Part shown: positions 57,601 to 63,600 of the stretch, in pieces
Numbering within the stretch: the first letter of the stretch is position 1
Layout of the letters: each line of letters begins with the position of its first letter
Source of the DNA: a virus
Lineage: Duplodnaviria; Heunggongvirae; Uroviricota; Caudoviricetes
Length of the DNA stretch: 64,000 bases
Virus record (IMG/VR): IMGVR_UViG_2718218360_000008
Reading direction: 5' to 3' (one strand)
Position numbers: made by a program

Positions 57601-60600
57601 GCATGATGTGCAGGACATGAGCCGCCTTAACCATCCGAAAGCGGACCTGTCAAAGGGGCAGTACGGAACCGTGGGGCAGGGGCTGCATATCGCCAAAAAA
57701 TTGCTGCCGTTTATACCGGCGAATGCGGGCATTCTGCTGGTTCCGTGCTGTCGTGGTGGTTCAGCGTTCACCACCGGAGCTGATGGCACATACAGTGACG
57801 CGAGTGGTGCCTCGGAGAATTCAACCCGCTGGGGTGTGGACAAGCCGCTGTATAAGGACCTTATCGGTCGAACAAAAGCAGCACTGAAGAAGAATCCGAA
57901 AAATGTGCTGTTTGCCGTGGTGTGGATGCAGGGGGAATTTGATTTTGGCGGTACGCCGGCAAATCACGCAGCACAGTTTGGTGCGCTGGTTGATAAATTC
58001 CGTGCAGACCTGGCGGATATGGCAGGTCAGTGCGTCGGTGGCTCTGCTGGCGGTGTTCCCTGGATATGTGGAGATACGACGTATTTCTGGAAGCAGAAGA
58101 ACGAATCCACGTACCAGACGGTGTACGGCAGCTACAAAAACAAAACGGAAAAGAATATCCATTTCGTACCGTTCATGACCGATGAGAACGGGATGAATGT
58201 GCCGACGAACAAACCGGAAGAAGACCCGGACATTCCGGGTATCGGATATTACGGTTCGAAATGGCGTGACAGCTCAGCCACCTGGACGTCACAGGACAGG
58301 GCGAGCCATTTCAGCGCCTGGGCACGCCGTGGGATTATTTCCGACCGTCTGGCAACGGCGATTTTGCGCCATGCGGGAAGAGTGGCGCTAAACGCGGGGG
58401 CATCATCGACAGTATCAGAGGTGCGCCCGTCATCGCCTTCCGGTGCAGAAGCCACAGGCGTCACAACACTGCTCTCTTACCTTGCCAGCGAGTCAGAGGG
58501 AAGCCTGAAAGTACAGGGATGGTCAGCCAGTGGCGGCAGGGCAGAAGTGGTCAGCGATGCGGAGGGAACCGGAGGTAAGGCAGTGAAGCTGACCAAGGAG
58601 GCCGGTAAAAGCAGCTGGGTGCTGGAGTACGCCGCGGGCAACGGTGCGGCTCTGTTACAGAAAGGGGGGCAGATTCGCTGCCGCTTTAAGGTTTCGGGAG
58701 CGCTGGCTGCGAACCAGTATGTTATGGCGTTTTACTGGCCGGTATCTTCACTGCCACAGGGCGTTGCCCTGACCGGAGACGGGGGGAATAACCTGCTGGC
58801 AGCGTTCTACATCCAGACAGATGTAAAAGACCTGAATGTGATGTACCACAATGCGAAAGTGGCGACAAACAACCTGAAACTGGGAACCTTTGGCGCATTT
58901 GATAACGAATGGCATACGCTGGCTTTCCGCTTTGCCGGGAATAACAGCCTTCAGGTGACGCCGGTTATTGATGGTCAGGATGGCACACCGTTCACGCTGA
59001 CGCAGTCACCGGTCAGTGCATTTGCGGCGGATAAACTGCATGTGACAGACATTACCAGGAATGCGACTTACCCGGTGCTGATTGACAGCATTGCGGTGGA
59101 AGTGAACAACGCGGATGCCGCGGCATGATAAAAAAAGCCGCCAGTTGCCTGAGACCTCTGGCGGTGTGAGATTCATGGAGAATCAAGGAAAGATACTACC
59201 ACTTTCGTCATCGGCATTTTTAAATGAAAACTGTTTACTTAGTCAACCATAACGGTAAGAAATTATGACATTTATTCATCAGCTGATGCTGTACTTCTGT
59301 ACGGTGGTCTGTGTGCTGTATCTCCTTTCGGGTGGGTACAGGGCCATGCGTGACTTCTGGCGCAGACAGATTGACAAAAGGGCCGCTGAGAAAATCAGCG
59401 CCAGTCAGTCAGCCGGAAGCAAACCCGAAGAGCCGCTCATTTAGCGGCAACTTTCTTAATCACATCTTTCGACGAGAAAATCCCATGTCAGAAATTACAT
59501 CCCTGGTCACTGCTGAGGCAGTGAAGGAAGTCCTGCGCTCTGAAGAAGTCCGGAGTGCACTGAAACAGAAACTCCGCCAGAATCTTGAGTCGCGTCTTGA
59601 TGCAGAAGTGGATGCTATTCTGGATGAACTGCTCGGCGCACCGGCAGTTCCTGAGCCGGAAGGTATCGCGGGTGAGGGGAGTGCTTCAGATAGCGGTGAC
59701 CCCACACCGGACAGCGACATGATGATGTAAGCATGCGTCAGGGACCATCGGTGTGTGCCGGTGGTCTTTTTTATTGTTGTGAGCTTCCGGATTGCGGGAG
59801 ACGGGGTATGTACCAGATGGAAAAAATCACAACAGGCGTGTCATACACCACGTCAGCGGTGGGAACGGGCTACTGGTTCCTGCAGTTGCTGGACAGGGTT
59901 TCCCCGTCTCAGTGGGCGGCAATAGGCGTGCTGGGGAGTCTGCTGTTTGGGCTGCTGACATATCTGACGAACCTGTATTTCAAAATCAGAGAGGACCGGC
60001 GTAAGGCGGCACGGGGAGAGTAGGTGATGAACCATGAAGAAATGAATCAGCGCTTCAGTCGTCTGGAAAATGAAATTGCTGAACTGAATAAAAAACTGTC
60101 GGCGCTGATGCCTTCTGAAGATGAAAAAAAACGCCGCGATGAGCAGTTTGCTGCGTTTGACGATTATTGTCGGAAAGTGATGAGCAGAAATCTCGCAGAG
60201 TGTTTCAGTATTCATAATGATAATTGCAGTGAGCTGGAATGGGAGTGTAACCGGCCATCCTTTGTTGTATCCGGTGATGACGGGAAAATCACCATATCAG
60301 AAAATGGAAAAGTAACACTGCCATCGCACCAGCACAGTGAGACGCTCATTGAATTTGCCATTGATTACCTGAAGAACAATAAAAAACAGGGGCTGATGCA
60401 GCGCATTGGTCGTTGCATGGGGTATCTGCAGGTAGCCGCTGAGATTGAAGCGCTGGCCAGTGGTGCTGATAAGGATGCAATTGTGCGGGAGGCTCTTCTT
60501 CGTAATTTTAATACTCCACCCTTTAAAAAAGTGCCGGCTTACTGGCTTCATCCCGGACTGACTTATCTGAAAGTGCGTATTTAGTGGGCCTGGGACAGCG

Positions 60601-63600
60601 GCTGAATATTTAATATATCCATGAACACAAAAATCAAATACGGCCTGTCGGCTGCCGTTCTGGCGCTGATTGCCGCAGGTGCTTCTGCGCCTGAAATTCT
60701 CGACCAGTTTCTTGACGAAAAAGAAGGTAACCACACCACGGCATACCGTGATGGTGCGGGTATCTGGACCATCTGCCGTGGAGCCACCCGGGTGGATGGT
60801 AAGCCTGTTATTCCTGGCATGAAGCTGTCGAAGGGGAAATGCGACCGGGTTAACGCCATTGAGCGTGATAAGGCGCTGGCATGGGTGGAGAAAAACATCA
60901 AAGTGCCACTGACTGAACCCCAGAAAGCGGGGATCGCGTCATTCTGCCCGTATAACATTGGCCCCGGTAAGTGTTTCCCGTCGACGTTTTATAAACGAAT
61001 TAATGCAGGCGATCGCAGGGGAGCGTGTGAAGCGATTCGCTGGTGGATTAAGGACGGAGGCAGAGACTGCCGTATCCGCTCAAATAATTGCTATGGTCAG
61101 GTATCCCGTCGTGACCAGGAGAGCGCGCTGGCGTGCTGGGGTATCGACAGATAAGCAGAATATTTTGCTGAAAAATGACGTTGGCCAACGCGGACGGATA
61201 ACACGAAATCCTGCGAACTGGCAAAACCTGAGTGAATAAAAGTAAAAACCCCGTTTGTTAGCAGCAGGTGGGGTTTTGTGTTTCCTGACTCCGGAAAAGT
61301 CAAAGGAGAAAGTGTGTTTGATTTTAGCAAACTGATTCGGGAGATTTGAGTGATGGCTGAAAAATTATCTACCTGGAAGTTCATTCTTATCTGGCTGGTG
61401 TTTGTGATTATGGTCTCCGGTTATTTCATCGGTCAGATACGCTGGTGGTGAAATGAACCGCGTACTGTGTGTGGTCATCATTGCCCTGCTGGTGGCCTGT
61501 GGTGCGCTTAGTCTGGGGCTGAATCATTACCGTGATAACGCCATCACCTACAAAGCGCAGCGCGATAAAAAAGCCAGAGAGCTGGAGCTGGCAAACGCAA
61601 CCATTACTGATATGCAGGTGCGCCAGCGCGATGTTGCTGCGCTCGATGCAAAATACTCAAGGGAATTAGCTGATGCGAGAGCTGAAAATGAAACTCTGCG
61701 TGCTGATGTTGCCGCTGGTCGTAAGCGCCTGCGGATCAACGCCACCTGCTCCGGTACCGTGCGTGAAGCCACCGGCACCTCCGGCGTGGATAATGCAACC
61801 GGCCCCCGACTGGCAGACACCGCTGAACGGGATTATTTCATCCTCAGAGAACGGTTGATGACAATGCAGAAGCAGCTGGAAGGGGCACAGGACTATATCC
61901 GCACTCAGTGCCTGAACTAAGTTTTGCGGATGCGCCGTATCGTCGCTGTATTCCCTCATTAACAGAGACCGCAGCCCGACAGGGAGACTCCTCTGCGCGA
62001 GTGTGCGGGGATAATCAAAAACGATACACACCGGGGTTTACCGCGTTAACGGAGCGCGGCGTTGTCCCCTCATAGTCGCTGGTCCGGTGCGATGGTGGAA
62101 GAAACCGGACTACATTACAAATGATAACCATTATCATTTTGCGGGTCCTCCTGGTGGGGTGGGCCTGAACACGGGGCGGGCGGCGCGGAAAAAGGCGCAT
62201 TTTTTGATTTTTATGGCACCATCACCACCAGTGTAAGTTATTGATATATAGAAAAATAAAAATTTTTAGTGTCGAATCTGGTTGTTTTTTGTTCATCACT
62301 GGTGTGTGTTTACATAATTTTCAGGGGGAGTTATGGATCGTGAATTAAAAAATCTGCATCTGAATATTTCCCAACTGGCCGCATTATCCGGTGCTCATCG
62401 ACAGACTGTTGCGGCTCGGGTAAAAAACATAAGCCCAGCCGGTGGTCATGAGAGCAATCTCAAACTGTACCGACTGACAGATATCCTTGCCGAGCTGATG
62501 AAAGCTCCTCTGCCTGTAGATAACGAGGAAATGGATCCTCATGCGCGTAAAGCATGGTACCAGTCAGAACGTGACCGACTGAAATTTGAGCAGGAAACTG
62601 GTCAGCTTGTGCCAGTCAGTGATGTCAGGCGGTCCTTTTCTGTCGTGGTGAAAGCGATAGTTCAGGTACTGGAAACCTGGCCTGACCGGCTGGAGAGGGA
62701 CAGGGGGTGGACCGCATCACAACTGAATGAAGTACAGATTGTGGTTGATGAGATCCGCGACACACTGGAAAAGGCAGTCATTGACTGTTGTGATGAGGCC
62801 GATATGTGAATCAGGTGAACGAGAGCCATAGCCGCGCATCCGATATCTGGCGCGAAGTGGCCTCGCTGTTTCGCCCACCCAGCCGGTTACCAGTAGCGGA
62901 AGCCATCAGGCGTTATATGCGGGTTCCACGGGGAGCCAATACTTCCGGTCCGTGGGAGTCATCGCTGACGCCCTATATGATTGACCCCATTAATACATTA
63001 TCAGCCCGTGAATATGACGCGGTGGTGTTTGTGGGACCTGCGCGAACCGGGAAAACCGAAGGGCTGATTGATGGCTGGATTGTGTACGGCATCATCTGTG
63101 ATCCGGCGGATATGCTGGTGTGCAGATGACTGAGACGAAGGCGCGTGAGCATTCCAGAACGCGTCTTTCCAGGACGTTTCGCCACAGTCCGGAGGTCAGC
63201 AAGCGCCTCAGTCCTTCCCGTAATGACAACAACGTCCACGATAAAATGTTTCTTGACGGCTCCTTCCTGAAGATTGGCTGGCCGTCGATCACCGTCTTTT
63301 CCTCTTCGGATTACCGTCGTGTGGCGCTGACGGATTATGACCGTTTCCCTGAAAACGTGGACGGGGAAGGGGATGCCTTCACGCTGGCCTCAAAGCGTAC
63401 CACCACCTTTATGTCCTCGGGGATGACCCTGGTCGAGAGTTCACCGGGGCGGGATATCACCGATACCAAATGGCGTTGTGGTGGCGCACATGAGGCACCG
63501 CCAACAACGGGTATCCTGTCACTGTATAACCGGGGAGACCGCCGCCGGTGGTACTGGCCGTGTCCGCACTGCGGGGAATATTTTCAGCCGGTGATGGATA

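Follow-up and report, generated by a model that had tools for sequence, protein, structure and literature searches.

A short-form YdfR-family gene, probably accessory cargo, at the holin-endolysin junction of a lambdoid prophage

The 64,000-nt stretch of DNA analyzed here (the window; IMG/VR virus record IMGVR_UViG_2718218360_000008, Caudoviricetes) carries on its + strand, at 59808-61920, a lysis cassette with the gene order holin, an open reading frame (ORF), lysozyme, a 33-aa ORF, and Rz with Rz1 embedded in it. What is the ORF that separates holin from endolysin, and does it belong to the lysis machinery? This extra gene, which we call ORF185, had been noticed in a sequence-only reading of the window, and we find it there, 185 aa long once its start is corrected to ATG 60027. 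By homology, ORF185 is a short form of the gene that normally fills the holin-endolysin junction in phage-21-type cassettes of Escherichia and Shigella prophages. We favor, with a probability of roughly 0.6, the interpretation that it is a cotranscribed, holin-coupled accessory gene of the YdfR mosaic, encoding a cytoplasmic coiled-coil protein with a binding domain and not a lysis protein. Escherichia coli NCCP 13894 matches the stretch at 100% identity, and many genomes of serotypes O157:H7, O111, and O103 match it at 99.4-99.9%. The gene order of the stretch is that of a lambdoid prophage without Shiga toxin (Stx) genes: RusA, Q, DNA methylase, small RNAs (sRNAs), nanS-p-like esterase, DUF1378, DUF826, S, ORF, R, Rz, terminase. 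Coordinates are collected in Table 1.

An alternative start codon for ORF185, GTG 60024, lies directly 3' of the holin stop codon (TAG 60021-60023) and would give a protein of 186 aa. Homologs read TGAATAATG or TAAAGCGATG at this position, with no in-frame start codon there; GTG 60024 was therefore rejected in favor of the conserved ATG 60027. RefSeq holds the same 185-aa protein (WP_001015158.1) under the name hypothetical. The observation that the ORF is more AT rich than its neighbors was confirmed, with a GC content of 0.450 (0.441 at third codon positions) compared to 0.556 for the holin gene and 0.541 for the endolysin gene. This value is the 12th percentile among 558-nt windows of the 64-kb stretch, and the AT richness is real, though moderate. 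The maximum KD19 hydropathy of the product is 0.76, and neither a transmembrane segment nor a signal peptide was found in it. Across 33 distinct alleles of the C-terminal part (111 codons), the summed ratio of nonsynonymous to synonymous substitution rates (dN/dS) was 0.24, with values of 0.15-0.39 against alleles that lack the partner gene described below. These data indicate that ORF185 is a genuine coding gene kept under constraint, as opposed to a reading frame that occurs by chance. Of 5426 complete E. coli genomes, 692 (∼13%) had DNA spanning at least 80% of ORF185.

The ORF had been described as uncharacterized. This description stands insofar as ORF185 has no match in Pfam (E ≤ 0.01), NCBIfam, PADLOC, or PDB sequences, but the family to which it belongs is known. 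ORF185 matches phrog_1085, a family of unannotated function, with an E value of 2e-111 (373 bits); residues 2-186 in the 186-aa numbering align to positions 117-296 of the 296-position profile, so that the match is partial and covers only the C-terminal part of the profile. Over 98% of its length, ORF185 is 83-86% identical to proteins (287-296 aa) annotated as 'YdfR family' or as 'DUF1327 domain-containing.' These longer proteins hold three modules: DUF1327 (∼100 aa, the entire YdfR of strain K-12), a coiled coil, and a C-terminal domain (C-domain). ORF185 consists of the last two, the C-terminal two-thirds of a 'YdfR family protein.' Its alignment starts after the DUF1327 region, and tblastn with the DUF1327 domain gave nothing in the window. 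Three further database matches were discarded. The PADLOC match of one 296-aa relative (P0034) to PbeC (0.018) was at chance level. The exhaustive search also returned two very long repeat adhesins of the LPXTG or cadherin-like type, P0153 (1189 aa) and P0139 (1721 aa; 13 stretches), and these were set aside as spurious, the match being to a short 'TI-ENGKV' beta-hairpin motif.

The N-terminal helical module of ORF185 contains a three-heptad leucine zipper, read from the sequence as F10, L13, I17, L20, L24, and L27. This module also occurs with another partner: the first 194 nt of the Stx2_14040 gene are 97% identical to ORF185, after which its C terminus is unrelated. The conserved residues of the C-domain include His103, G128-R-C-M-G132, L134-Q135, E139, P165-F166-K167, W173, P176-G177, and Y180-L181-K182, and the domain has no Pfam family. 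A full-length AlphaFold2 (AF2) model built from 61 close homologs reached a mean predicted local distance difference test score (pLDDT) of 52 and is usable only in the N-terminal helices. When residues 63-185 were modeled from a 44-sequence alignment that included distant homologs, the pLDDT rose to 88.1 with a predicted template modeling score (pTM) of 0.80; the model has strands at 17-22, 25-30, and 33-35, followed by four helices. No structural relative of this C-domain model was found in PDB or BFVD. In six of nine distant homologs, the C-domain is preceded by an N-terminal domain related to DUF1327 (hhalign 75%, E 2.6e-5; P0129 has a weak Pfam match). From these alignments the fusion of N-domain and C-domain is old. 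The short form is itself widespread: variants of 185, 213, and 209-221 aa occur in hundreds of genomes, and a conserved start of its own (MNHEEMNQ), at the same Shine-Dalgarno spacing, recurs in many lineages.

The sequence-only reading had taken holin and endolysin genes to be normally adjacent, which does not hold for this lineage. We fetched 80 IMG/VR contigs by their holin alone (≥97%-identical holin), and 71 of them had an endolysin within reach; because this sample is redundant and dominated by E. coli, the percentages that follow are rough. Holin and endolysin were adjacent, 1-4 nt apart, in only 11 of the 71 contigs (15%). The most frequent content of the intervening slot was DUF1327 only (35/71, 49%). 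A coil plus C-domain gene as in the window, with a gap of 596-603 nt, was found in 10 contigs (14%), all three modules were found in 7 (10%), and the other 8 (11%) had further combinations, some of them with reverse-strand genes. The slot was thus filled in 85% of contigs, nearly always by YdfR-family modules, and it is likewise filled in the essQ-ydfR-rrrQ region of the K-12 Qin prophage. The expectation that the insertion would vary between related prophages was borne out by comparison: the 71 contigs reduced to 44 distinct slot sequences, and the slot gene is 161, 185, 213, 268, or 329 aa long across the window and four GenBank Stx phages. Every slot state was seen beside holin alleles 100% identical to that of the window. 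On these counts, a filled slot is the rule for this holin lineage, and the arrangement in the window is an ordinary one. In one contig (L098:1612-2866), the slot holds a coil plus C-domain gene of 213 aa together with two others: a DUF1327-like gene of 75 aa, separate from the first, and, on the reverse strand, an unrelated gene of 116 aa. With three genes in this single slot, the junction behaves as a general cargo hotspot.

Homologs from Salmonella and other enteric bacteria, found through protein searches and 35-40% identical, lie elsewhere. They are upstream of holin, in the cargo region between Q and holin; at these loci the holin and endolysin genes overlap, and the holin belongs to another family (PF16080). 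Three Salmonella loci (L011:3569-5838, L013:3025-5941, and L009:3339-5568) have the C-domain gene between Q and holin. Their neighbors include ParE/HTH and HicAB toxin-antitoxin modules and a DUF4406 gene, which are typical of accessory or defense cargo. A scan of species-representative genomes returned only three loci, in Escherichia and Shigella, and its search pattern was probably narrow.

In K-12, the same slot is occupied by YdfR (b1555), the founder of DUF1327 (PF07041), in the order essQ - ydfR - rrrQ - rzpQ/rzoQ. The ydfR start lies 4 nt past the stop of essQ, an S21-type holin gene, and YdfR and ORF185 belong to the same mosaic gene set. YdfR, however, is a 103-aa protein made of DUF1327 alone, whereas ORF185 is made of the two modules missing from YdfR, the coil and the C-domain. 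Residues 1-72 of K-12 YdfR interact with residues 1-597 of RNase E in a bacterial two-hybrid assay (PMC13232886, 2026). The full-length protein pulls down the N-terminal, catalytic half of RNase E and copurifies RNA, and its overexpression alters few transcripts (PMC13232886). Because the interaction was mapped to YdfR residues 1-72, which have no counterpart in ORF185, RNase E or RNA binding cannot be transferred to ORF185. Our literature search on DUF1327, ydfR, and this slot found only this RNase E interactome paper, and the slot goes unmentioned in reviews on how Stx-phage genomes are organized. Two kinds of longer relatives share both the slot and the C-domain with ORF185: gp05 of Stx2 phage 86 (YP_794052, 268 aa, 'YdfR family protein'), whose C-domain is 81% identical, and the 296-aa proteins mentioned above (P0034). 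Unlike ORF185, both have an N-terminal DUF1327. In phage 86, the convergent partner gene described below is gp06, which lies between gp05 and endolysin; the ORF185 locus has none.

How would the inserted gene be expressed? A Shine-Dalgarno-like motif (GGGGAGAG) overlaps the last holin codons upstream of ORF185. The junctions of the 71 contigs revealed that in insert-free cassettes the same motif precedes endolysin, whose ATG is 4 nt past the holin stop and whose product begins MSRK[LF]RYGL. The junction of holin stop and following start codon, together with the motif, is conserved among insert types. Since the insert gene takes the position after the holin stop, endolysin in the window starts behind a leader without a Shine-Dalgarno motif. 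Endolysins behind an insert begin MNTKIKYGL and follow an AT-rich leader (…AATATTTAATATATCC-ATG) of this kind (60585-60640 compared with L140 and L143). Any insert may uncouple endolysin translation from that of holin and lower it, and the endolysin:holin ratio may change as a result. A scan of 54000-63000 found no sigma-70-like promoter on the + strand and several + strand terminators downstream of Q, and ORF185 has no terminator of its own, lying 3 nt past the holin stop and 36 nt before the endolysin start. From Q to the lysis genes, the + strand has several terminator-like hairpins, among them that between the DUF826 gene and holin; hairpins in this position would fit read-through in a Q-antiterminated late operon.

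We propose that ORF185 is transcribed with the lysis genes on the Q-antiterminated late transcript and would be translated in step with holin, through the Shine-Dalgarno motif in the 3' end of the holin gene. The product would be a cytoplasmic oligomeric binding module that acts outside the lysis machinery. Most likely, it would share a pathway with DUF1327, to which it is fused in longer and in distant relatives, and with the protein of the phrog_1853 partner gene described below. We read ORF185 as cargo and not as lysis machinery because identical holins occur with or without it and because its Salmonella relatives are located upstream of holin. The same is argued by the fact that DUF1327 and the C-domain, which are unrelated, can each fill the slot alone, and by the lack of a membrane segment. 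ORF185 also has no match to a lysis-category PHROG or Pfam family. Among the roles suggested by the sequence-only reading (moron, lysis regulator, or accessory function), we thus favor the last, and the first two are disfavored for the reasons given below.

Several observations weigh against accessory cargo. The sole activity reported for the family sits in DUF1327, the module missing from ORF185, and any link between ORF185 and RNase E would be guilt by fusion only. The phrog_1853 partner gene is missing from the window, late transcription is read from gene order, and the contigs of the census are redundant and mostly from one species. PMC13232886 cites an envelope-biogenesis screen (Paradis-Bleau 2014) as having flagged K-12 ydfR. 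Finally, a slot in the middle of the cassette that is 85% occupied and coupled to holin would suit a lysis-linked role equally well.

These last two observations speak for a regulator of lysis timing, a role that we consider unlikely. ORF185 would then be either a cytoplasmic antiholin-like factor acting on the charged C-terminal tail of the pinholin or a cis-acting spacer that lowers endolysin translation, and it would tune the release of the signal-anchor-release (SAR) endolysin. There are precedents in P1 LydB and T4 RIII, which are soluble regulators encoded beside holins; like the ORF185 product, they are small soluble proteins expressed with the holin. In favor of this role, ORF185 sits at the S-R junction in translational coupling with holin, and with the insert in place the endolysin loses the Shine-Dalgarno motif embedded in holin while its N terminus changes from MSRKLRYGL to MNTKIKYGL. 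However, identical holins work whether the slot is empty or holds DUF1327 only or coil plus C-domain, and two unrelated domains that fill one slot are unlikely to act as the same regulator. The distant homologs are found outside the S-R junction, beside a holin of another family, and homology to known lysis families is lacking, as noted above. The insert may act in cis on endolysin dosage; such an effect, however, would come with whatever gene filled the slot and would not depend on the ORF185 protein. Nor does ORF185 resemble the precedents themselves: Pfam, PHROG, and structure searches found no similarity of sequence or fold to LydB or RIII, ORF185 is dispensable with an identical holin, and its homologs are not tied to holins.

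Another possible role follows from a neighbor that the C-domain gene has in other phages. This partner (phrog_1853) is a reverse-strand gene of ∼105 aa, convergent to the C-domain gene, with the two stop codons 10-30 nt apart or overlapping; its protein has no Pfam family. When IMG/VR loci were retrieved by the partner alone, it adjoined a C-domain gene in 46 of 46, as it did in four of four GenBank phage records, and it is also beside the C-domain gene at L001, L002, L006, L008, and L011. The pair was seen in Stx2_12E129, Stx2-86, and three metagenomic or Salmonella loci, with partner proteins 38-77% identical. Of the 80 IMG/VR loci most similar to ORF185, not one had the partner. IMG/VR has 46 partner loci compared to 183 C-domain loci, the C-domain gene being alone in ∼75%, and among complete E. 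coli genomes the partner occurs in 96 and ORF185-like DNA in 692. In the window, tblastn located the partner nowhere. Where other phages have a ∼420-nt segment with the partner, the gap between ORF185 and endolysin is just 36 nt, and alignment to L001 and L002 shows the difference as a clean indel.

This asymmetry, in which the partner is never alone while the C-domain gene is often alone yet selected, is as expected of an effector/antidote pair. The C-domain could be the late-expressed antidote of an undescribed two-gene prophage module, neutralizing a phrog_1853 protein that would act in the lysogen as a defense or addiction factor and so providing self-immunity in lytic growth. The partner-less copy in the window would protect against the partner proteins of other prophages. 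We hold this to be a rather improbable role for ORF185, although the pair holds together where partner identity is as low as 38% and at two distinct places in the genome, lone C-domain genes remain under purifying selection, and the Salmonella neighbors include ParE/HTH and HicAB modules. Prophage defense with cognate self-immunity has been published for BstA/aba (PMC8585504) and Tha (PMC11087260). The C-domain/partner pair of other phages is conceptually like these systems in that one component is never alone and the other is expressed in lytic growth and often orphaned; there is no homology to them and no PADLOC match. At E ≤ 0.1, PADLOC-DB 2.0 returned nothing for either ORF185 or the partner. 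The linkage could also have a simple origin, in that the two genes were inherited as one module and one deletion came later, consistent with the clean 420-nt indel, and late expression would possibly come too late against many defense systems. If the antidote role were true, the partner-less copies in ∼13% of complete E. coli genomes would be orphan immunity or anti-defense genes, a lambdoid prophage could finish lytic growth despite a rival prophage with the partner, and the frequent fusion to the RNase E-binding DUF1327 would link the module to RNA turnover.

Two further explanations seem very improbable to us. A lysogenic-conversion moron would use its own signals for expression in the lysogen and would give the host an advantage such as virulence or stress tolerance; the GC content of 0.45 compared to ∼0.55 in the neighbors is in keeping with this, and the region from Q to the lysis genes in prophages of enterohemorrhagic E. 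coli (EHEC) does carry cargo such as stx and nanS-p (PMC8136144, PMC10462455). A classical moron is disfavored, however, because the scan gave no promoter-like site upstream on the + strand, because ORF185 lacks its own terminator, is closely spaced to its neighbors, and is coupled to holin, because the + strand hairpins fit Q read-through, and because ydfR, which fills this slot in Qin, had hardly any reads when K-12 was RNA sequenced in standard growth (PMC13232886). A decaying, functionless remnant of a 296-aa YdfR-family gene, truncated at its 5' end, would account for the identity of ORF185 with the C-terminal two-thirds of longer proteins and for the many fragmentary versions in databases, but the dN/dS of 0.24 and the widespread short forms with a conserved start stand against it.

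The phage-21-type cassette, found in nearly all Shiga toxin phages, is usually drawn with holin and endolysin side by side; in this lineage, the junction is a recombination slot that is mostly filled. Its family has three parts, DUF1327, the coiled coil, and a C-terminal domain for which we found no curated family and, in PDB or BFVD, no structural relative. The family is located inside the lysis cassette of most Shiga toxin phages. In EHEC, the slot proteins would be produced alongside Shiga toxin and the proteins of lysis. Because of this, and because one module is reported to bind RNase E, the roles of slot proteins could bear on the stability of late transcripts, lysis timing, or competition between prophages. 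For the window itself, the result is deflationary: the arrangement is common, the gene is already annotated as hypothetical or YdfR family, it gives no evidence of an unusual lysis system, and specialists in lambdoid prophages will not be surprised by it.

TABLE 1 Features of the lysis cassette, its surroundings, and the partner gene (positions refer to the window unless a contig is named)
Feature	Position	Strand	Evidence or remark
ORF185, cargo gene, 185 aa	60027-60584	+	YdfR-family short form without DUF1327
N-terminal helical module, aa 1-61	60027-60209	+	AF2 helices 3-27 and 31-61; pLDDT 74-92 over aa 1-40
C-terminal domain, aa ∼70-185 (∼115 aa)	60234-60581	+	Three-strand beta meander plus four helices
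Shine-Dalgarno-like GGGGAGAG in last holin codons, 6 nt 5' of ATG 60027	60013-60020	+	Read from sequence
36-nt spacer/endolysin leader	60585-60620		AT rich; no Shine-Dalgarno motif
Phage-21-type class II holin (pinholin), 71 aa	59808-60023	+	PF04971 'P21 holin S'
SAR endolysin, 177 aa, T4-lysozyme type	60621-61154	+	PF00959, 3e-24, 86.2 bits
Hairpin between endolysin and Rz	61245-61277	+	15-pair stem
33-aa ORF, single transmembrane segment	61350-61451	+	phrog_6632, 1.6e-19, function unannotated; KD19 2.26
Rz i-spanin	61453-61920	+	PF03245, 3.4e-50
Rz1 o-spanin lipoprotein, inside Rz, +1 frame	61673-61858	+	PF06085, 1.7e-21
Terminator-like hairpin, DUF826 gene/holin interval	59740-59769	+	13-pair stem then TTTATTGTTG
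tRNA-like element	56634-56693		Rfam 37.3 bits; none by ARAGORN; tRNA-Met in RefSeq annotation of the identical genome
sRNA STnc100	56779-56971		Rfam 140 bits
Anti-GcvB sRNA AgvB	56973-57034	-	Rfam 96.5 bits
Partner gene (phrog_1853) copies	L001:3157-3471, L002:2859-3173, L011:5521-5838	-	

The genes on either side of ORF185 are those of a known type of cassette. The match of the holin to PF04971 (9e-33, 112.5 bits with a cutoff of 26) covers residues 5-67 of 71, the holin also matches phrog_9876 and phrog_20, both labeled 'holin,' and RefSeq names it 'class II holin family protein' in the identical genome. It had been described as an S21-like holin with a dual start. The S21-like family and the two methionines are there, in an N terminus that reads MYQMEK (59808-59819) with Met1 and Met4, the latter being the second Met codon at 59817. 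The three-residue extension has neither Lys nor Arg, whereas phage 21 S begins MKSMDK, with a Lys in the extension, and an antiholin function of the longer form is uncertain for lack of this Lys. The endolysin aligns from residue 12 to the SAR endolysin R21 of phage 21 (3HDE/3HDF) and also to RrrD (4ZPU). Its catalytic triad pattern, E35-x8-D44-x5-T50, is kept within EGNHTTAYRDGAGIWT, and residues 8-26 (GLSAAVLALIAAGASAPEI), which align to the SAR region of R21, comprise 11 Gly, Ala, or Ser out of 19 with a KD19 of 1.78. Given the 3HDE alignment, the triad, and the Gly/Ala/Ser-rich segment, the assignment of the cassette as pinholin plus SAR endolysin is sound, in agreement with the sequence-only reading. 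The translation of Rz1 has a lipobox-like VVSAC, and the stop codon of the 33-aa ORF is 1 nt 5' of the Rz start codon. The interval 61245-61451, which contains this ORF, is a second cargo slot of the cassette, where Stx2-86 has ant.

Rfam detected three RNA elements at 56634-57034, in the interval between DNA methylase and the nanS-p-like esterase, the place that stx occupies in Stx phages. A degraded second copy of the endolysin-Rz-terminase region, at 12085-15432, is 97.9% identical to 60648-64000 with 23 gap positions; its endolysin and Rz genes are frameshifted, and it lies directly 3' of tail-fiber genes. The location is probably that of a prophage junction or remnant. As an internal comparator for the slot the copy did not serve, since it starts inside endolysin and has neither holin nor slot. 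Tail-region genes are directly repeated at 1-9600 and 22388-31934 (spacing of ∼22.4 kb, 92-100% identical), and the window spans mosaic or tandem prophage segments.

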